Shown piece after piece: positions 2,286-56,789 of a stretch of DNA of 64,000 bases (within the stretch, counting starts at the first letter, position 1; every line of letters starts with the position of its first letter). The translations under genes and the position numbers were made by a program. The notes below the pieces were generated by a model that ran no database searches, was not told the DNA's origin, and saw only the letters and a list, made by a program, of their open reading frames with translations. The DNA comes from Shigella phage ESh24. The stretch lies in sequence record ON528734; one strand, written 5' to 3'.

Positions 2286-3625
<1,340 letters not shown>

Positions 3626-3685
3626 TTGCTTACATATTCAAATGATATAATTATTTAACTTATTAATGAATTGAAAGGAAAAATA

Positions 3686-4204
3686 ATGGCTCACTTTAAT
3701 GAATGTTCACAACTGATCGAAGGCGCTGATAAAGCTCAAAATGAATATTGGGATATTCTCGGTGATGAAAAAGACCCGCTGCAGGTTATGCTTGACATGC
3801 AGAAATCTTTGCAGGTTCGTTTAGCTAAAGATAAACCTGAATATAACCGTCATCCTGATGATTTGGCTACTGCAGGTGAAGTTGTTGATTGGCTGCGTAA
3901 TCAGAAAGATTATATTGACGATGAATTCCGTGAACTTCTGACTTCTCTTGGTGGTATGAGTAATGGTGAAAAAGACGCATCTGCTGTATGGAAACCTTGG
4001 AAGTCGCAGCATGGTGAACGTCGTGAAACTCTGATTACTGATTTGTCTCCACAGGACCAGTTAGAAATCAAATTCGAAATGATTGATATTCTCCATTTTG
4101 TTCTGAACATGTTTCAAGGTCTTGGTCTTACAGCAGAAGAAATCTTTAAACTTTATTATCTGAAAAATGCTGAAAATTTCGCTCGTCAAGACCGAGGTTA
4201 TTAA
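3686..4204 (+). CDS. 56: dCTPase/dUTPase gp56 (MazG-like)
   Basis: ATG at 3686 with RBS AAAGGA; 171 aa; sequence recalled as T4 gp56. Confidence 0.85.
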   Translation: MAHFNECSQLIEGADKAQNEYWDILGDEKDPLQVMLDMQKSLQVRLAKDKPEYNRHPDDLATAGEVVDWLRNQKDYIDDEFRELLTSLGGMSNGEKDASAVWKPWKSQHGERRETLITDLSPQDQLEIKFEMIDILHFVLNMFQGLGLTAEEIFKLYYLKNAENFARQDRGY

Positions 4205-4234
4205 CAGCTCGTCTTAAAAGCCGCGAGAATTTAT

Positions 4235-22949: not shown

Positions 22950-24278
22950 ATGCAACTGAATAATCGCGATTTAAAAAGTATCATTGATAATGAAGCATTG
23001 GCTTATGCTATGTACACGGTTGAAAATCGTGCTATCCCAAATATGATTGACGGATTTAAGCCAGTTCAACGATTTGTTATTGCTCGAGCTCTTGATTTGG
23101 CACGAGGAAATAAAGATAAGTTTCACAAACTCGCTTCTATTGCAGGTGGTGTAGCGGACCTTGGATATCATCATGGTGAAAACTCTGCGCAAGACGCAGG
23201 TGCTTTAATGGCTAACACTTGGAATAATAACTTTCCTCTGTTAGATGGTCAAGGAAACTTTGGTTCTCGTACCGTCCAAAAAGCAGCAGCAAGTCGTTAT
23301 ATTTTTGCTCGTGTAAGTAAAAATTTCTATAACGTATATAAAGATACTGAATATGCTCCGGTACATCAAGATAAAGAACACATTCCGCCTGCTTTCTATT
23401 TGCCTATTATTCCTACTGTTCTTCTTAATGGCGTTTCCGGTATTGCAACTGGTTATGCAACTTACATTCTTCCTCATAGTGTTTCTTCTGTCAAGAAAGC
23501 TGTACTACAAGCTCTTCAAGGAAAGAAAGTAACTAAACCGAAGGTAGAATTCCCAGAATTTCGTGGTAAAGTCGTTGAAATTGATGGGCAATATGAAATT
23601 CGTGGAACATATAAGTTTACTTCACGAACTCAAATGCATATCACTGAGATTCCGTATAAGTATGATCGTGAAACTTATGTGAGTAAAATCTTAGACCCAC
23701 TTGAAGATAAAGGCTTCATTACATGGGATGATGCTTGTGGTGAGCACGGCTTCGGCTTTAAAGTTAAATTCCGTAAAGAATATTCTTTGAGCGATAATGA
23801 AGAAGAACGCCATGCAAAAATTATGAAAGACTTCGGGTTGATTGAGCGTCGTTCTCAGAATATTACGGTTATTAATGAGAAAGGAAAGCTACAAGTTTAC
23901 GATAACGTAGTCGATTTAATTAAAGACTTTGTTGAAGTTCGTAAAACTTATGTCAAAAAACGAATTGATAACAAAATCAAAGAAACTGAATCAGCTTTTC
24001 GTTTAGCCTTTGCCAAGGCACATTTCATTAAGAAAGTAATTTCAGGTGAAATTGTTGTACAAGGTAAAACTCGTAAAGAACTAACCGAAGAACTTTCTAA
24101 AATTGATATGTATTCTTCTTATGTTGATAAACTAGTCGGAATGAATATTTTTCATATGACTTCCGACGAAGCAAAGAAACTTGCTGAAGAAGCAAAAGCT
24201 AAAAAAGAAGAAAACGAATATTGGAAAACTACTGATGTAGTTACAGAATACACCAAAGATTTAGAGGAAATCAAATGA
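22950..24278 (+). CDS. 52: DNA topoisomerase II medium subunit gp52
   Basis: 442 aa, GyrA-like N-terminus; T4 gp52 length. Confidence 0.9.
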   Translation: MQLNNRDLKSIIDNEALAYAMYTVENRAIPNMIDGFKPVQRFVIARALDLARGNKDKFHKLASIAGGVADLGYHHGENSAQDAGALMANTWNNNFPLLDGQGNFGSRTVQKAAASRYIFARVSKNFYNVYKDTEYAPVHQDKEHIPPAFYLPIIPTVLLNGVSGIATGYATYILPHSVSSVKKAVLQALQGKKVTKPKVEFPEFRGKVVEIDGQYEIRGTYKFTSRTQMHITEIPYKYDRETYVSKILDPLEDKGFITWDDACGEHGFGFKVKFRKEYSLSDNEEERHAKIMKDFGLIERRSQNITVINEKGKLQVYDNVVDLIKDFVEVRKTYVKKRIDNKIKETESAFRLAFAKAHFIKKVISGEIVVQGKTRKELTEELSKIDMYSSYVDKLVGMNIFHMTSDEAKKLAEEAKAKKEENEYWKTTDVVTEYTKDLEEIK

Positions 24279-24551: not shown

Positions 24552-25187
24552 ATGTCTAAAGTAACTTACATCATCAAAGCTTCTAACGATGTTCTGAATG
24601 AAAAAACTGCTGCGATTTTAATTACTATTGCTAAGAAAGATTTCATTACAGCCGCAGAAGTTCGTGAGGTGCATCCAGATTTAGGTAACGCAGTAGTTAA
24701 TAGTAATATTGGGGTGTTGATTAAAAAAGGCCTGGTGGAGAAATCTGGTGATGGATTAATCATTACTGGTGAAGCTCAGGATATTATTTCAAATGCAGCA
24801 ACTTTATATGCACAAGAAAATGCTCCGGAACTGCTGAAAAAACGAGCAACTCGTAAAGCTCGCGAGATTACTTCCGATATGGAAGAAGATAAAGACTTCA
24901 TGTTAAAACTTTTAGATGAAAATGGATTTATTCTTAAAAAGGTTGAAACTTACCGCAGTAACTATCTTGCTATTTTAGAAAAACGCACTCACGGAATTCG
25001 CAATTTTGAAATTAACAATAATGGAAATATGCGAATTTTTGGATATAAAATGATGGAACATCATATTCAGAAATTTACTGATATCGGAATGTCATGTAAA
25101 ATCGCTAAAAACGGTAATGTGTATCTTGACATTAAACGCTCGGCAGAAAACATTGAAGCAGTAATCACCGTAGCATCTGAACTGTGA
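24552..25187 (+). CDS. motA: middle-transcription activator MotA
   Basis: 211 aa, T4 MotA length, next to asiA/52. Confidence 0.85.
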   Translation: MSKVTYIIKASNDVLNEKTAAILITIAKKDFITAAEVREVHPDLGNAVVNSNIGVLIKKGLVEKSGDGLIITGEAQDIISNAATLYAQENAPELLKKRATRKAREITSDMEEDKDFMLKLLDENGFILKKVETYRSNYLAILEKRTHGIRNFEINNNGNMRIFGYKMMEHHIQKFTDIGMSCKIAKNGNVYLDIKRSAENIEAVITVASEL

Positions 25188-25197
25188 GGAATAAATA

Positions 25198-25527
25198 ATG
25201 AACAAGTTAGAAATTGTTAATGAACTTCGTCGTTGTGCAGAACCCACTCAAGAGGGGTGGGACATCTGGTATCATGGAGCTTATCTTGGAACTATCGTAA
25301 AGATTAAGACTGGCAAATACATGATTATTCGTGAAAGTAAAGATGCTCCAGTAGGTATTCGCAATAATTTCATGGCAGCGATAAGTTCCTTTACGGATTC
25401 AGCTTACGAAATTTACCTTGCTGATTATAAAGAATTCCAGGAATCTCAACCAGTTATTCGTTCAATTGGTGTTAACAAAGCTCAACAGAAAACTTTGTGG
25501 CAACGTATTAAAGGATGGTTTAAATGA
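25198..25527 (+). CDS. hypothetical protein
   Basis: 109-aa ORF. Confidence 0.5.
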
Positions 25528-25985
25528 AAACTTTTAAAGAACGTTTAGCTCTGTTAGATAAAGCTTTGTTACGTGAGACTCCGGAAAGTCTGGCTGCTAA
25601 ATTAGCTTCTTACGGCGGTGAATATACAGAACAAAATGTTTTAGATGAAGTTCCTGAAATCTGTTGGCAGACTGCATATTGGGATGAAAACCAAAAGTAT
25701 CAACGACGAATTGTCTGTGCAGCCAACCGTTTTAAATTAAAAGATGGACGAACTCTTATTATTCCGGGTGCTCGTCATTATTCTAAAGATATGGCAGCAG
25801 TTTTAGATGTAGTTAAACCTCAATTAGTTACTCAACAAGTTTGTGATGATGACCAAGGGTTTATTGACCAATATAGTAATTATTGGACACGTGAAGAAGC
25901 AATGATTATTGCAACTTACGCTGGACAAGTACGTATTGAACGTGGTGGTAGTGAAAAAGAACTTTACTCTGAGGACCTTTACTAA
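25524..25985 (+). CDS. hypothetical protein
   Basis: 153-aa ORF. Confidence 0.5.
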
Positions 25986-26281
25986 TGAATATTAAAAAGT
26001 TTCAAATTGATGGAATTATGAATCAAATCCAGGCGCTGGAATATGCCAATAAAATGATGTCAACTAATTGGGGAATTTATACCAATGAACCTGCATTTCA
26101 GTTTTGTGATATGGAATTAACTAAAAAGCTCGTAGGAAAAGATTATGTATGTCCATTTAGTTCTCCAGTAAATGGAATGTTAAAACCTGCTTTACGCGAT
26201 CTTTATATTGCGATGAATGAAGAGATGATAAAAGATCTAAAACGTCAACTGAAGGTAATTCAATTTGGCCAGGGAAATTAA
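25985..26281 (+). CDS. hypothetical protein
   Basis: 98-aa ORF. Confidence 0.5.
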   Translation: MNIKKFQIDGIMNQIQALEYANKMMSTNWGIYTNEPAFQFCDMELTKKLVGKDYVCPFSSPVNGMLKPALRDLYIAMNEEMIKDLKRQLKVIQFGQGN

Positions 26282-26483
26282 TTCAAAATCCGATTATTTT
26301 AATTCTCTCAATGATAAAGATAAAAATCTAATACGGCATTTTATTGTTGAGATGGGATATACTGACACACGTGATTTAAGAGAACATATATTTGAATGTG
26401 GTGTAGCTAAAAAGTTTTCATTCACATGCAAATGTTTGAGAGAGGTAATTCAGCACTATGAACAATTTAGTCGCAAAACATAA
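26265..26483 (+). CDS. hypothetical protein (start uncertain, TTG or internal ATG)
   Basis: 72-codon ORF from TTG; ATG at 26352 would give 43 aa. Confidence 0.3.
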   Translation: MAREINSKSDYFNSLNDKDKNLIRHFIVEMGYTDTRDLREHIFECGVAKKFSFTCKCLREVIQHYEQFSRKT

Positions 26484-26566
26484 TTTTAATAAAGCTTCTG
26501 TCCATAAAGATAAGAAGAAAGCGTTTAAAGAATCTAATCGCAAACAGAAACATAAGGGGAAGGTCT

Positions 26567-26846
26567 ATGATTATTGATTCTCAATCTGTGGTTCAATATA
26601 CAATCAAAATTGATATTCTAGAAAAGCTATATAAGTTTTCTACCAAATTTATACCATTCAATTGTTAATGAATTAGTTGAAGAATTACATCTTGAGAATA
26701 ACGATTTCTTGATTGGAACTTATAAAGACCTCTCAAAAGCAGGATATTTTTACGTAATTCCAGCTCCAGGAAAAAGTATTGATGATATATTAAAAACTAT
26801 AATGATTTACGTCCATGATTACGAAATTGAAGATTATTTCGAATGA
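26567..26846 (+). pseudogene. arn: arn-like acidic ORF interrupted by a +1 frame break
   Basis: ATG 26567 with RBS AAGGGGAAGG; frame stops after 33 codons at 26666-26668 while the +1 frame continues 60 more codons to TGA 26844-26846; combined about 92 aa. Confidence 0.4.
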
Positions 26847-26995
26847 GTCATAATCTTGAAAAGGTAATCGAGCACAATGTAGCTCAGGAACGTGAGTCGT
26901 TCAAGGAATTCGTAGAAAAAATTTTTGAAGAAAATAACACAGACCAGTTTACAAATCAAGCGTCTGATGATATTATAACAAAGTCAACTAATTGA
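26843..26995 (+). CDS. hypothetical small acidic protein
   Basis: 50 codons immediately upstream of asiA. Confidence 0.35.
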   Translation: MSHNLEKVIEHNVAQERESFKEFVEKIFEENNTDQFTNQASDDIITKSTN

Positions 26996-27007
26996 GTGGT
27001 ATAGTTA

Positions 27008-27280
27008 ATGAATAAAAACATTGATACAGTTCGTGAAATTATTACTGTTGCATCTATTTTGATTAAATTTTCCAGAGAAGATATTGTTGAGAATCGTGCT
27101 AATTTTATTGCATTTCTGAATGAGATTGGAGTAACGCATGAAGGTAGAAAGTTAAATCAGAATTCATTCCGTAAAATTGTTTCTGAATTAACCCAAGAAG
27201 ATAAGAAAACCCTCATCGACGAATTCAACGAGGGTTTTGAGAGTGTATATCGATATCTAGAGATGTATACGAACAAATAA
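27008..27280 (+). CDS. asiA: anti-sigma70 factor AsiA
   Basis: 90 aa MNKNIDTVREIITVASILIKF...; matches T4 AsiA as recalled. Confidence 0.9.
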   Translation: MNKNIDTVREIITVASILIKFSREDIVENRANFIAFLNEIGVTHEGRKLNQNSFRKIVSELTQEDKKTLIDEFNEGFESVYRYLEMYTNK

Positions 27281-27937
27281 TTATTTAGCCCTTCCTAATA
27301 TTCTGGCCGCCTGAGCACATATTGATTCAAGGCGGTCATTACTTATATGATCATTTCTATACCAGTACATGGTTATCGTTCCAGCATAGATATTATCCAA
27401 ATTAAAATATGGACAACTGTACATGTAGTTTATTTCGGGAGTAGGCTTTTTAGTTGGTAAAAAAGCAAATTTTGAGTTGGAATAATAATGACGTCCATTT
27501 AAATGAACTATATATTCATCCATAGTTTTATCAACAGGATATCCTCCAAGTGATTTTTCACTTATTGTTGAAGGTAATTTTCCTTCATATGCTATAATAT
27601 CAACAAAATAGTTTAAGTTTTTAGGGCGGAAAGAATACACCGCACTAAAGTCTGCCTCAGATGATATATGAACTATCTGGAGTTGTTCCAGGGCGACAGA
27701 TTCAAAGCGTGCATTTCTTTCCTTTTCAATAATTTCACTGTATGTTTCATACTTTGATTGCTTATAGTACTCAAAGAAACTATCTCCCCTATACCAAACA
27801 ATCGCCATTATAAACAAAAGAATTACGACAGCTACCCGGGAAGCAAGAACCTTCCCGGTAGCATTATCTTTGAACAAGCGATCTAGAACACCCAACAGAA
27901 TATCAGAGGGCGAAAATGATATTCTAGGTGCTGCCAT
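27281..27937 (-). CDS. t: holin T
   Basis: 218 aa with single N-terminal TM and large periplasmic domain; T4 t length. Confidence 0.9.
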   Translation of the reverse strand: MAAPRISFSPSDILLGVLDRLFKDNATGKVLASRVAVVILLFIMAIVWYRGDSFFEYYKQSKYETYSEIIEKERNARFESVALEQLQIVHISSEADFSAVYSFRPKNLNYFVDIIAYEGKLPSTISEKSLGGYPVDKTMDEYIVHLNGRHYYSNSKFAFLPTKKPTPEINYMYSCPYFNLDNIYAGTITMYWYRNDHISNDRLESICAQAARILGRAK

Positions 27938-27982: not shown

Positions 27983-28762
27983 TTAAATCCAGGAACCATA
28001 GATCGTGCCTGTTGCACCCCATGATGGCGAAGAACCGAATACCGCTCTACCTGGAGCACCACCGCCGGATCTAGATAAGTGATTACCCCATCCATCTCCA
28101 CCCCGACCTCCAGCATCACCGCCATTGCCACCGCCAAATTGACTTGTATTACCACCGCCGCCTGGACCGTCATAACTAGCATTGCCACCAGGCCAATTAA
28201 CACCACCGCCACCGAGACCAAATGGTCTGCCACCGCCACCACCAGCTGTAGCATACGCGTCCCAGCTATTCTTTAACGACACTGCACCACCGCCACCGCC
28301 GCCTGATGCAATAACGCCATAGTTCCAAATGCGGAGTCGTCCACCAATATCATTTTGGATTACGTCGCCACCATTAGTGCCTGGGCTTCCATTTACGCTA
28401 CCATTACCACCTCGGCCCCACATATGAACACCACCATGAATATTCAAAGTAACATATTCGTTAGGAGTATCACCATACATGAAGAATAAAGGAACGTCTT
28501 TAGAATATGATACTAAGTTGCCTGTGATATTAAACACTATAGGAGCGCCACCGGCTTCAAAACAACGGTCACGGAACCATTGACCATTAAAGTTATGGTC
28601 TGCTCCAAGAGTGTGAATAATTTCTCTTGAACGTCCAGCGAATTGTGACATCCAAGATGGGTTCCCTAGACGTAATTCTCTAGAAGCTGCTGACATCCAA
28701 CGTTGACCTGTTTCAGCCACTGCTGATGTTCCAATCCAACCAGGTATTCCTACTACTGCCAT
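27983..28762 (-). CDS. 38: gp38 receptor-recognising adhesin (T2-type, glycine-rich motifs)
   Basis: 259 aa; conserved N-terminal region then poly-Gly blocks ([30 protein letters not shown]) separating variable segments. Confidence 0.8.
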
Positions 28763-28773
28763 AAAAACCTCCA

Positions 28774-28789
28774 GGGCCCGAAGGCCCTT
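28774..28789 (-). terminator. hairpin between genes 37 and 38 (attenuator-like), immediately before the gp38 RBS
   Basis: AGGGCCCGAAGGCCCT in the 30-bp gap between gp37 stop and gp38 start. Confidence 0.45.
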
Positions 28790-28792
28790 TTA

Positions 28793-31700
28793 TTATTTTA
28801 TCAATGATTTAATTAATGCTTTCAACTCAGCAATTTCAGATTTCAATTCCTTGATTTCGTCAGTATGCTCGTTGATAGTGGCAGTATTTAAACCAATAAT
28901 ACCGTTATAGTTCAAACGAAGCAGTCCGGTCTCTTTATCTTCAGAAACAAGTTCAGGAAATACTTTTTGAACTTCCTGGGCGATTAAACCGGCGGACGGT
29001 TTAACTTCATCAGTAACGGGGTTTTTAAGCAGATAAGTATAACCACCTAAGAGTTTAGATTTCTCTTGTGCGTTATCGATAAGCTTAATTTCCGATTTAC
29101 AACGAATATCAGAACGAATATAAACGTCGTTAACGTCAATGTTATCGCGAACATACATACCGGCGTTACAGTGGAAGTTAACGTTACTAAAGGTCTGGGC
29201 CAGCCCAGCTCGAATACTGAATACACCTTGACCATTAGCATACATGTTGTAGATGCCATCGCTTTCCCAGACCAATCCAGTGTCATTGTCACCAATTGCT
29301 ATGCATGGCGTAGACCAAGCGGGTTCAATACCTACACCAATACCCGCCCAACCGGAAACAATTCTTCCTGGGGAAGTAAACTGCCCGTTGGCCAAAAATT
29401 GATAAACCGCTGCAGGATGTCCTTGTTCTGGTGTATTTTCAGTTGAACGAACAATTATACAACCGGTACCCCAACCTGCGGTACCTGAACGTAAAGTACC
29501 TAGCTCTACACTTGTGTTATATCCATACCCCGTTGAAGAACTTCGTCCTTTAATAATAGGATAGTACACATTCCCGTTTAATTCGCCATGTTCTACAAAT
29601 ATAGGAGCTTCAAGGTTATATTGTAGGCTAATCATACCTGAGTTTTGAGAGACCCATCTTGTAGCATTAACGTACATACGGTTTTCACTCATTTGAACCA
29701 AGCCAAAAGCGCTTGGGCTAAATGTAATGGCGCCAGCGTCATTCAAATCAATACCGGTTGTTGTTTTATAGTTGTAAAAAGATACTGTGTCAGATTGGCC
29801 ACCTTTACCAACAAACCAACTATTAGCACCACCAACTTCTGAACGAATATGCGAACTATTAATTGCATTAGGTGCTCTAATTACTAAAGCATCATCGGCC
29901 GCAGCAATAGTTAATTTTCCGGTCATCGTATCGCCTTCTTTGGCAATACGAGTAGCTATTGCATCGCGAATATTTGTAATGTCTCCTGCTGAAGTAAACG
30001 TTTTCCAAATATCCGAGAAAATATTACCATTACGAGCAATAGCAGCTTCGCCACCGCCGACCAGAACGTTATCGGGAAAATTAACGGTACCATCGGCGTT
30101 AAATCTTGATGTATGGCCTTGTGAACCATCTTCTTTGATATGGTGTAAAACAAATGTACCCGAATTAATTTCAGTACCTAAAGACCAAACAGCTTTACTG
30201 TTTAAAAACTTCTGTTTAACAATAGGATAATATTTACTTACTGCGTCATCATCGATTTCCTGGAAAATAGGAGCTGCTTGAACATATTGAATATCATAAC
30301 CACCAGCGCCCGCGCCGTGACCAGTAAATTTAATATAACCGTTTGCTGCGAACGTATTGTAACTTGATTGTAAATCTGGAATAGTAACTTTACCAGTATC
30401 TAAAGCCATACTAAACGGGCGAAGTGGACCGATATCGCCGTGTTTACCTTCACCGTAAGCAGTTGGAATAATATGAAGACTACCTTCTGAACGTCTAAAA
30501 ATGGCTCCATAATCTGCGTTCCAAATACGAAGCGCATTCACTGCTCCAGATGAAATTTCACCTGTTGTGTGAACTCCTCTATCTCCAGCAGTAACACCAG
30601 ATGATTCAAATGAACCATTAACGTTCATTTCTACTTCGCCAGTAGTAAGTCTTTGAATATAGCTCATCCAGCTAGTTGCATCAGAAATTTCCATAATGTT
30701 TTTACGGATACCTCCGCTTGGATCAACAAACGTATTACCCCAAACTTTAATATCCATATTATCAACCGAGCTGTATCCTGTTGTGTTGCCTCTAAACATT
30801 AGTGTAGAAGAATTATTTCTACCATCTATATTAACAGAACCGCCAATAACGTCAATATTACCAGGAGTAACTAACAAACCGCCGTGAGTATTAATGTTTG
30901 TAGTACCCTTACCGCGGAAATAATGATGATAATTACCACCTTGATAATATCCTAAAAGAGTTTGACCGTCGCCGTATGCGTTATTATCGTGGTATGTTAC
31001 TACAGTAGCAAGAGCATAGTTTTCTGTCGGTGGCGTTGTCATAAGAATCCCATCCGGAGAATAACCCATAACCATTTTTCTAAGGCTTTGTGTTTCCGCA
31101 GGACCGTAAATGAAAGTTCTTGTTCCGTTGTTTACTGTATGAAAATATCCGTCCTGGTGCCATTTTAGCCCGGTATCATTATCACCAAGAGCAATCGAAG
31201 CAGTCCCTAATTCAGAATATCCTTTAGAGCCACCCGGAAGACCTATAGAAATAGAATGGCCTGCTTTCAATCCACCGGCCCAGTTAAACGACCAAAGATA
31301 AGTGTCTAAGCCATCTCCGGAATACCAGGTTATTCCGTCATTAACATTAACTTCGTGGAAAATACCTGCTCCTACAGCATTTCGCATAACACGTAGGTGG
31401 TTAATAGCCGTTTCGCCTTCTGCCATTGGAGTGTTATTTGATAATGAATAGATATCATAATCGCCTGTCTTCTTCCCGTTTGTAATAACTTTGTCGGTCA
31501 GAATTTGTGGAGACGAAATAGATTTCCATGCTGATACTTCAGGTGAAGTAAATAGGCCACTGCCTGAAAATGCATAAGTGCTTTCGCTACCAGCGGCGTA
31601 GTCTTGAACCCTGATATTAAGTACTTGTGTAGTTAAACCATCATTAGCCGGGGCATAAATGATTCCACGTTCGCGACTATTGCCATCGAAAAAACGAACA

Positions 31701-32059
31701 TGCGCTGTACCTGAACTTTTTGTAATAAGTTCTCCGCCTTCAGTCATAATCTGCCCAGCAGCAATAATATCACGAGTTACTCGAGCAATACCAGTTAAAT
31801 TAAAATTACCAGTCTGGGTGAATGTACCGTTTAAAGTATAATCACCAGTTTGGTTATAATTGCCTTTATGAATAACATTCCCGTCAATACTACCGCCTTT
31901 AGCAAAACCTAAATCAATAATATTTCCCTGGTCATCTTTAGTAAAAAGTACACGGTCTTTTAAGTTTATAGCCAATTCACCTTCGGCTAATACTGAAGCA
32001 GCTGGACGTTGACCTGCCGTTTTGCTTCTTTTAAATTGTATTTGTTTTAAAGTAGCCAT
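28793..32059 (-). CDS. 37: long tail fibre distal subunit gp37 with C-terminal intramolecular-chaperone-like domain
   Basis: 1088 aa; conserved N-terminus MATLKQIQFKRSKTAGQRPAAS; C-terminal SDIRCK...coiled-coil tail. Confidence 0.9.
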   Translation of the reverse strand: MATLKQIQFKRSKTAGQRPAASVLAEGELAINLKDRVLFTKDDQGNIIDLGFAKGGSIDGNVIHKGNYNQTGDYTLNGTFTQTGNFNLTGIARVTRDIIAAGQIMTEGGELITKSSGTAHVRFFDGNSRERGIIYAPANDGLTTQVLNIRVQDYAAGSESTYAFSGSGLFTSPEVSAWKSISSPQILTDKVITNGKKTGDYDIYSLSNNTPMAEGETAINHLRVMRNAVGAGIFHEVNVNDGITWYSGDGLDTYLWSFNWAGGLKAGHSISIGLPGGSKGYSELGTASIALGDNDTGLKWHQDGYFHTVNNGTRTFIYGPAETQSLRKMVMGYSPDGILMTTPPTENYALATVVTYHDNNAYGDGQTLLGYYQGGNYHHYFRGKGTTNINTHGGLLVTPGNIDVIGGSVNIDGRNNSSTLMFRGNTTGYSSVDNMDIKVWGNTFVDPSGGIRKNIMEISDATSWMSYIQRLTTGEVEMNVNGSFESSGVTAGDRGVHTTGEISSGAVNALRIWNADYGAIFRRSEGSLHIIPTAYGEGKHGDIGPLRPFSMALDTGKVTIPDLQSSYNTFAANGYIKFTGHGAGAGGYDIQYVQAAPIFQEIDDDAVSKYYPIVKQKFLNSKAVWSLGTEINSGTFVLHHIKEDGSQGHTSRFNADGTVNFPDNVLVGGGEAAIARNGNIFSDIWKTFTSAGDITNIRDAIATRIAKEGDTMTGKLTIAAADDALVIRAPNAINSSHIRSEVGGANSWFVGKGGQSDTVSFYNYKTTTGIDLNDAGAITFSPSAFGLVQMSENRMYVNATRWVSQNSGMISLQYNLEAPIFVEHGELNGNVYYPIIKGRSSSTGYGYNTSVELGTLRSGTAGWGTGCIIVRSTENTPEQGHPAAVYQFLANGQFTSPGRIVSGWAGIGVGIEPAWSTPCIAIGDNDTGLVWESDGIYNMYANGQGVFSIRAGLAQTFSNVNFHCNAGMYVRDNIDVNDVYIRSDIRCKSEIKLIDNAQEKSKLLGGYTYLLKNPVTDEVKPSAGLIAQEVQKVFPELVSEDKETGLLRLNYNGIIGLNTATINEHTDEIKELKSEIAELKALIKSLIK

Positions 32060-32067
32060 AAGTCCTC

Positions 32068-32724
32068 TTAATAATAGCCGAAATCTTGAACAGAATCCTT
32101 AATTACGATTTGGTCAAATCGCGGAACATGCGAGGGTTGAGATGCAGGATTCTGTGAAAAAAGGTTTGGCGCAGTTAAATTTCCTGTCATAGTGTCTCCA
32201 GAGCGTAATACTCTAGAGTTTGCATTTGTTGTAACAATATTTATTGCCCCATCAACATAATCTTTTCTCGTAAGGTCATAATTATTTACTGGTGATAACG
32301 AAGTTGCGCGTATTTGTGATGCTTCAATTACACCCTTTGAGCTAATATCTCCGTTTCGTGTGTTAATTACTACAGTTCTACCTGCTGCCCCTTGTGATGA
32401 TTTAAAGCCGATACCATACCATGAAACAATATCCATATTTGTAGTATCATATGTAGCATTATCACCAGGACCGGCAAAAATACCGTTGTCACCTGACCCA
32501 GCACCAGGAACAGTCATTCCTTTATTAAAAATTACTTTATTTAAATATGTACCACCATTAGCTTTAGAAACGAAATCGTTATCAGCAGCTTGTGGTTTAT
32601 TATATTCTGAATATATTTTAAATGATTTATAGAGTACATCGTCACCGGCTGGATTCAATGGAAAATTTCCTTGATGCCAAATGACAGAGCCTCCAGTTGT
32701 TGAACCTACTTTTAAATCAGCCAT
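32068..32724 (-). CDS. 36: long tail fibre distal connector gp36
   Basis: 218 aa, position between 35 and 37. Confidence 0.85.
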   Translation of the reverse strand: MADLKVGSTTGGSVIWHQGNFPLNPAGDDVLYKSFKIYSEYNKPQAADNDFVSKANGGTYLNKVIFNKGMTVPGAGSGDNGIFAGPGDNATYDTTNMDIVSWYGIGFKSSQGAAGRTVVINTRNGDISSKGVIEASQIRATSLSPVNNYDLTRKDYVDGAINIVTTNANSRVLRSGDTMTGNLTAPNLFSQNPASQPSHVPRFDQIVIKDSVQDFGYY

Positions 32725-55974: not shown

Positions 55975-56552
55975 AAGCGAGTACAGTACTTCAAATTGCA
56001 TATTTAGTATCACAAGAATCAAAATGTTGCTCCTGGAAGGTAGGAGCAGTAATTGAAAAGAATGGACGTATTATTTCTACTGGGTATAATGGTTCGCCTG
56101 CCGGTGGTGTGAACTGCTGTGATTATGCTGCCGAGCAAGGTTGGTTGTTGAATAAACCTAAACATACTATCATTCAAGGTCATAAGCCTGAATGCGTATC
56201 ATTTGGTTCAACTGATCGCTTTGTCTTGGCGAAAGAACACCGTAGCGCTCACTCTGAATGGTCGTCTAAAAATGAAATTCATGCTGAACTAAATGCAATT
56301 TTGTTTGCTGCACGAAATGGTTCTTCTATTGAAGGTGCTACTATGTATGTAACACTTTCTCCTTGTCCAGATTGTGCAAAAGCGATAGCTCAATCTGGTA
56401 TTAAAAAGCTGGTTTATTGCGAAACATACGATAAAAATAAACCTGGCTGGGATGATATTCTGCGAAATGCAGGTATTGAAGTGTTTAATGTTCCTAAGAA
56501 AAACTTGAATAAGTTAAACTGGGAAAATATCAACGAATTCTGTGGTGAATAA
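55971..56552 (+). CDS. cd: dCMP deaminase
   Basis: 193 aa; cytidine/dCMP deaminase Zn motifs HAELNA and SPCPDC. Confidence 0.9.
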   Translation: MKASTVLQIAYLVSQESKCCSWKVGAVIEKNGRIISTGYNGSPAGGVNCCDYAAEQGWLLNKPKHTIIQGHKPECVSFGSTDRFVLAKEHRSAHSEWSSKNEIHAELNAILFAARNGSSIEGATMYVTLSPCPDCAKAIAQSGIKKLVYCETYDKNKPGWDDILRNAGIEVFNVPKKNLNKLNWENINEFCGE

Positions 56553-56789
56553 TGAAATTTCGTTTGGTAAAGCTCACAGCAATTAGTTCTTATTCTAATG
56601 AGAACATCTCGTTTGCTGTAGAGTATAAGAAATATTTTTTTCTCTAAATGGAAACAGTATTATAAAACTGATTGGACTAGTATTGATAGACCATATAGTT
56701 GGAAATCTGATTTAGAAAAATGCCAAAAATTACTTTCCACTCTTAAAGAACGTGGAACAACTCATATTAAAACTGTAATAGGTAAATAA
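56552..56789 (+). pseudogene. small ORF broken by a frame change in a T7 homopolymer (31.2 position)
   Basis: frame stops after 31 codons at 56645-56647 right after TTTTTTT (56635-56641); +1 frame continues 47 codons to TAA 56787-56789 abutting next ATG. Confidence 0.35.

Follow-up and report, generated by a model that had tools for sequence, protein, structure and literature searches.

McrBC (Rgl) is a host nuclease that attacks non-glucosylated hydroxymethylcytosine DNA. The Arn protein of bacteriophage T4 is described as mimicking DNA, by which it protects non-glucosylated T4 against McrBC, and as a ligand of H-NS (PMC12707154; PMC2993671). T4 Arn is furthermore reported to inhibit the PUA-Cal-HAD defence system, an activity that the substitution N70S is reported to abolish (2026 preprint 10.64898/2026.01.15.699771, PMC12871103), and the Arn protein of phage T2, which has a serine at position 70, is reported not to inhibit this system (PMC12871103). 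Even near-identical stocks of T4 can differ in this gene, as laboratory sublines have been distinguished by the frameshifts arn 258dupA and rI.-1 179dupG (Subedi and Barr 2021, PMC8573959). T4 Arn itself is encoded by one intact frame, whereas in phage ESh24, as we describe here, the arn frame is broken after codon 24.

The stretch of the ESh24 genome that was analysed, 64,000 nucleotides long and hereafter called the window, belongs to a T4/T6-like phage of the genus Tequatrovirus, with the plus strand as the direction of the early genes. When a 651-bp query around positions 26567-26846 was compared at the nucleotide level, 492 phage records matched, nearly all with 95-99% identity, and the annotation of the region in these records reads arn, asiA.1 and asiA; altogether, the locus is annotated as arn in hundreds of relatives. 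By descent, 26567-26846 is the already known T4-type anti-restriction gene arn, but it is not intact. An initial annotation, which had named T4 Arn as the likely relative, was correct in its identification.

The surroundings of the gene are those expected for arn. Its map position is the same as in T4 (arn.1 region, arn, asiA.1, asiA, t, 38), and the order of genes around it is also that of T6, RB3 and ECP52, where asiA.1 and asiA come after arn, and then t, the gene for the holin, and gene 38. Directly upstream lies a 39-aa ORF of the DUF7230 family (26458-26577, plus strand; PF23876, E=1.2e-11), which is annotated in RB3 and ECP52, whose stop codon overlaps the arn start, and which is the normal context of arn. 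Downstream, on the same strand, are asiA.1, encoding 50 aa (26843-26995; PHROG 3762, E=7e-38) and annotated under this name in T6 and RB3, and asiA (27008-27280), followed on the minus strand by the holin gene t (27281-27937) and the gene for the glycine-rich gp38 (27983-28762), these last three positions being taken from the ORF list.

Other parts of the window diverge more strongly from T6. The receptor-recognition module on the minus strand (27983-32270) is divergent: gp38 is a glycine-rich adhesin of the T2/T6 type with only ~73% identity to T6 at the DNA level, and most of gene 37 (about 28764-31905) gave no blastn match to T6, which suggests, as far as sequence can tell, a host-range cassette unlike that of the nearest relatives. 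The region of gene 56 (dCTPase, 3625-4218) is only ~75% identical to T6, with flanks at 95-97%, and is by this pattern of identity a local mosaic replacement.

The reading frame of arn begins at an ATG at 26567, upstream of which stands a Shine-Dalgarno-like sequence (AAGGGGAAGG, 26554-26563, plus strand) that is the same in T6 and PhiZZ30. From this ATG runs a plus-strand ORF of only 33 aa (MIIDSQSVVQYTIKIDILEKLYKFSTKFIPFNC, 26567-26668) that terminates at a TAA at 26666-26668, so that the uninterrupted frame of ~92 codons is absent. The first 24 codons (M1-F24, 26567-26638) are in the native frame; they are identical to T6 Arn at 24/24 positions by tblastn and equal to T4 Arn apart from F13I. 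Translation beyond this point gives an out-of-frame tail, STKFIPFNC, which together with the premature TAA occupies 26639-26668. The rest of the gene, codons 25-92 with the stop codon TGA (26640-26846), continues on the same strand in the +1 frame, and its translation is 95.7% identical to residues 23-92 of T6 Arn. This second frame is open from 26622, after a TAG at 26619-26621, to the TGA at 26844-26846, and reads LPNLYHSIVNELVEEL...YEIEDYFE. It holds 68 arn codons, of which about 59 lie past the first stop, and it ends by overlapping the start of asiA.1 as ATGA (26843-26846). Both the ORF list and the ribosome-binding sequence are thus in agreement with the initial annotation, which had described a 33-codon ORF from 26567 with a good ribosome-binding site and a +1 frame continuing for some 60 codons onto the next ATG.

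The frame change to which the split had been attributed comes down to a single base. In alignments with two T6 records and PhiZZ30 there is one gapped column: AAG TTT CTA CCA in the relatives corresponds to AAG TTTT CTA CCA in the window. The same single gap was seen against RB3, ECP52, a48, Sf24, PinkRuby and three IMG/VR contigs. Since one gapped column recurs in all alignments, the split of arn after codon 24 is due to one extra T in the plus-strand run at 26636-26639, which is TTT in the relatives.

When one T of this TTTT run was deleted and the two parts were translated jointly, the repaired Arn was exactly 92 aa long, where about 92 had been estimated. Alignment with T4 Arn (PDB 3WX4), a comparison that the initial annotation had suggested, gave 89/92 identical residues (E=1.6e-55), the three substitutions being F13I, N70S and V74I. 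The repaired protein also matched the Pfam family PF22134 (DM_Arn, 'DNA mimic protein Arn') with E=1.2e-53 over positions 1-79 of 79, and PHROG 3151 ('inhibitor of MrcBC restriction') with E=3e-42; with the repaired protein as a tblastn query, it proved 100% identical to the Arn of phage a48. Because the joined protein matches both PF22134 and PDB 3WX4, the split frame is not a chance pattern. The acidity claimed for the locus holds for the joined protein, which by composition contains 16 D/E versus 7 K/R (pI 4.55) and is in this respect like T4 Arn. It does not hold for the 33-aa ORF, which was the one described as acidic: this product has 3 D/E versus 4 K/R (pI 7.9), and with its 24 native residues it keeps only 18 of the 79 PF22134 profile positions, while the part in the +1 frame matches positions 40-79.

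The extra T has no counterpart in the relatives. A 91-bp query centred on the site matched 447 phage records, none of them gap-free, and the best 26 of these 447 matches differ from the window only by the one-base gap. Using the repaired protein as query, tblastn found arn in 484 records, and in every one of them (484/484) a single location accounts for at least 80% of the protein; in 60 of 60 rows sampled across the ranking, the match is a single in-frame piece spanning residues 1-92. An exact 22-nt pattern containing TTTT gave no matches in IMG/VR viral contigs, JGI metagenome contigs or GTDB genome contigs, a search with a small denominator given that the wild-type pattern itself matched only three IMG/VR contigs; the phage collection, with its 447-484 records, is the meaningful one. 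The 33-aa peptide likewise had no exact match in the assembly index, and neither did the gp38 of the window. Among the genomes compared, the insertion is therefore private to ESh24. The initial annotation had considered that its reading would have to be given up if relatives carried the same two-ORF arrangement and the N-terminal peptide alone were functional; the arrangement was found in 0/447 site matches and 0/484 gene matches. The arn gene of T2 (MH751506) is intact as well, with 97.8% identity at the protein level, and by these two differences the window is not phage T2 itself.

Comparison of the flanking DNA bears on the age of the event. Over the segment 26500-26636, the window shows 100% identity with several relatives, RB3 and RB5 among them, and the 210 bp downstream of the site gave no match of at least 99%. 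We considered whether this lower identity might reflect relaxed selection downstream of the shift, and rejected the idea: each substitution in the window's arn, including the V74I change (present in a48 and RB3), occurs in some relative, as expected of mosaic polymorphism rather than decay, and only the inserted T is private. In a column-by-column comparison with relatives, no secondary decay was seen downstream of the shift. Considering that every substitution is common with relatives and that such decay is absent, the event is either very recent or artefactual.

Of the three explanations offered in the initial annotation, namely an inactivated gene, a sequencing indel and separate expression of the two parts, the first two are both plausible. 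In our judgement the most likely origin, to which we would give about an even chance, is a genuine and very recent duplication of a single base that became fixed in the isolate or in the stock. An artefact of sequencing or assembly, in which the 92 codons of arn are unbroken in the phage itself and the deposited consensus contains one T too many through homopolymer over-calling, is a serious contender to which we assign somewhat less than an even chance. Several observations are as expected of an over-call. None of the 447-484 relatives has the insertion, nor does any of the contig collections contain it, and deleting the T restores a protein fully identical to that of a48 with no other damage. 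Deposits of the same phage also disagree by small indels nearby: the T6 records AP018814 and MH550421 differ by 2 bp in the ORF upstream of arn, and in gene 52, which is unannotated in MH550421, that record departs from the window by 1 bp. On the other side, a consensus homopolymer error would be less expected in a run of only three to four T.

Frame splits elsewhere in the window are informative in this regard. A scan in which every ATG-initiated ORF of at least 50 aa, on both strands, from the corresponding region of T6 MH550421 was compared by tblastn found three genuine frame splits: in arn, in an ORF of the arn.1 region and in gene 31.2. The one in the arn.1 region (26459) was rejected as a window-specific frameshift, as the underlying 2-bp difference is common (most matches are 650 bp long), and so was a candidate in gene 61.1 (935-940), where the window has the common state of its relatives and T6 MH550421 is the odd one out. 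Private ORF-breaking insertions of 1 nt are therefore only two in the 64-kb window, those in arn and gene 31.2. Gene 31.2 (56552-56789, plus strand) encodes 78 aa in T6 and RB3 and has a run of seven T at 56635-56641 in place of the six in relatives, so that it is split into a 31-aa ORF (56552-56647) and a remainder in the +1 frame that ends at a TAA at 56787-56789; the additional T was seen in 0/212 matching phage records. Both private insertions thus lengthen a plus-strand run of T by one base (T3 to T4 in arn, T6 to T7 in 31.2), and such same-strand extra Ts are a signature of homopolymer over-calling.

The distribution of the two insertions, in contrast, speaks against an error-prone assembly. 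Both are in ORFs of at most 100 aa, and no frameshift was found in ORFs >100 aa across the 64-kb window, although, of 3109 A/T runs of at least three bases in coding sequence, 2623 are in such ORFs (486 are in small ORFs), which an error-prone assembly would be expected to break. Under uniform error, the expectation that both insertions land in small ORFs is about 0.024, and their placement looks filtered by selection. The small-ORF argument nevertheless carries little weight, since it is often only the large, well-known genes whose frameshifts are corrected by authors, and the pattern could equally come from a curated assembly. The other single-base indels that separate the window from T6, RB3 and ECP52 are mostly intergenic or represent the common state in relatives, which also fits poorly with frequent base-calling errors in this record.

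The T6 record MH550421 differs from the window both in the arn.1 region and in gene 52. In the arn.1 region (26265-26577, plus strand), with its indel near 26459, the window and most relatives have two overlapping ORFs, a 72-aa ORF with a TTG start (PHROG 4452) and the 39-aa DUF7230 ORF. T6 MH550421 has instead a single ORF of 104 aa (RB32ORF249c), which is due to two extra bases there; T6 AP018814 disagrees with it at the same point. In the window, gene 52 (22950-24278, plus strand) has an unbroken frame for the 442 aa of the medium subunit of topoisomerase II, whereas the corresponding stretch of T6 MH550421 (43207-44538) is unannotated and reads GGG against the GG of the window at 24085-24086; the GGG is probably a frameshift or an error in the T6 record.

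For a genuine duplication, the T4 sublines provide a parallel, as arn 258dupA is likewise a single-nucleotide duplication in arn that distinguishes near-identical stocks (PMC8573959), a precedent for such changes arising or persisting in this auxiliary gene. The two events differ in their effect. The T4 duplication is at codon 87 and alters only the length of the C-terminus (94 versus 92 aa), whereas that of ESh24 is at codon 24-25 and costs the protein three quarters of its length. Against a genuine duplication, natural loss of arn is rare, the gene having been found in one frame in 484/484 of the other genomes matched. Whichever of the two origins applies, the event is of an ordinary kind: either a gene that the phage can do without was recently inactivated, or a base was miscalled.

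Besides these, we considered whether the TTTT run might be both genuine and useful. Full-length Arn could then be made by +1 slippage of tRNA-Phe on UUU_U, AAG UUU UCU being read as AAG UUU_U CUA, and arn would be hypomorphic or regulated rather than null. That ribosomes slip at a low level on U-runs is well established. Here a slippery P-site is present, tRNA-Phe would re-pair perfectly after the +1 shift (UUU to UUU), and translation would yield precisely the wild-type protein. Neither conservation nor a stimulatory signal speaks for programmed recoding at the site, however. The two-frame arrangement is not conserved, being absent from all 447 site matches and all 484 gene matches. The upstream sequence GCUAUAUAAG, read by eye, is without a Shine-Dalgarno-like stimulator. 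With respect to recoding of the prfB type, the sequence upstream is GCTATATAAG, and the codon in the A-site, UCU, is an ordinary sense codon and neither a stop nor a rare one. Slippage at the level of transcription would also be hard to invoke, a run of four U being too short for it. A useful slippage site of this kind is therefore very improbable, and the more specific proposal that an anti-restriction gene has become recoded or hypomorphic in nature, producing a low and possibly condition-dependent amount of full-length Arn, strikes us as similarly improbable.

Alternatively, the two pieces might be expressed separately and retain some function, for instance if the C-terminal acidic fragment were to mimic DNA on a smaller scale or the N-terminal peptide were active by itself. 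It is true that the 45 C-terminal residues counted from a TTG at 26709 are acidic (pI 4.57) and that the C-terminal part matches the second half of the Arn profile (positions 40-79). The C-terminal frame, however, has no ATG or GTG, and this TTG, the first in the frame, lacks a Shine-Dalgarno sequence. At the premature stop there is an overlapping ATG (TAATG, 26668), but it opens the third frame, which closes again after two codons. As for the N-terminal peptide, only 24 of its residues are native and it is not acidic. Considering also that no relative has this arrangement, whether among the 447 site matches or the 484 arn records, separate expression, the third of the explanations named in the initial annotation, is disfavoured, and we regard it as the least credible of those considered.

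If the duplication is genuine, as we think most likely, its consequences for the protein would be severe. Ribosomes starting at the ATG at 26567 would translate 24 native and 9 out-of-frame codons and terminate at the TAA at 26666-26668, leaving codons 25-92 untranslated. The resulting 33-aa product would be unable to fold as Arn does or to present the acidic surface of Arn, and the allele would accordingly be expected to be null or nearly so. At most, trace amounts of full-length Arn might arise if tRNA-Phe slips spontaneously into the +1 frame on UUU_U. McrBC does not act on T-even DNA that is fully glucosylated, and for this reason loss of arn would be tolerated and the gene would be dispensable in ordinary propagation.

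The mutation may also have an effect on the next gene. The ATGA overlap between the two reading frames suggests that asiA.1 is probably translationally coupled to arn, and the early stop, 175 nt before the asiA.1 start, may reduce asiA.1 translation. A promoter-like site (26948-26976, plus strand) falls within the last part of asiA.1, some 30 nt upstream of the asiA start, with TTTACA, a 17-nt spacer, TATTAT and an upstream TG (10/12 matches), from which asiA could be expressed independently of the arn frameshift; a scan of 25000-27400 for promoters and terminators found no enrichment over shuffled sequences.

Even with its frame restored, the ESh24 protein may not have the full range of activities described for T4 Arn. 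In the alignment to 3WX4, position 70 of the repaired Arn is a serine and not an asparagine, as in the T2-type protein, which differs from that of the window in being encoded by an intact copy. The repaired Arn would thus be expected, from this residue, to be of the type that does not inhibit PUA-Cal-HAD.

In summary, arn, which is otherwise strictly maintained across the genus, with a single frame in 484/484 related genomes with a match, is interrupted in ESh24 by one extra T. Beyond annotation the finding is of little importance, and the locus should be labelled as arn (frameshifted, possible sequencing error) rather than as a pair of hypothetical ORFs. Should the mutation be genuine, ESh24 would be a natural arn-null T-even phage, whose non-glucosylated progeny should be more sensitive to McrBC. 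It could then be a ready control for the roles of Arn against McrBC and in H-NS binding, and could be used to examine what Arn does in nature, also with regard to PUA-Cal-HAD.
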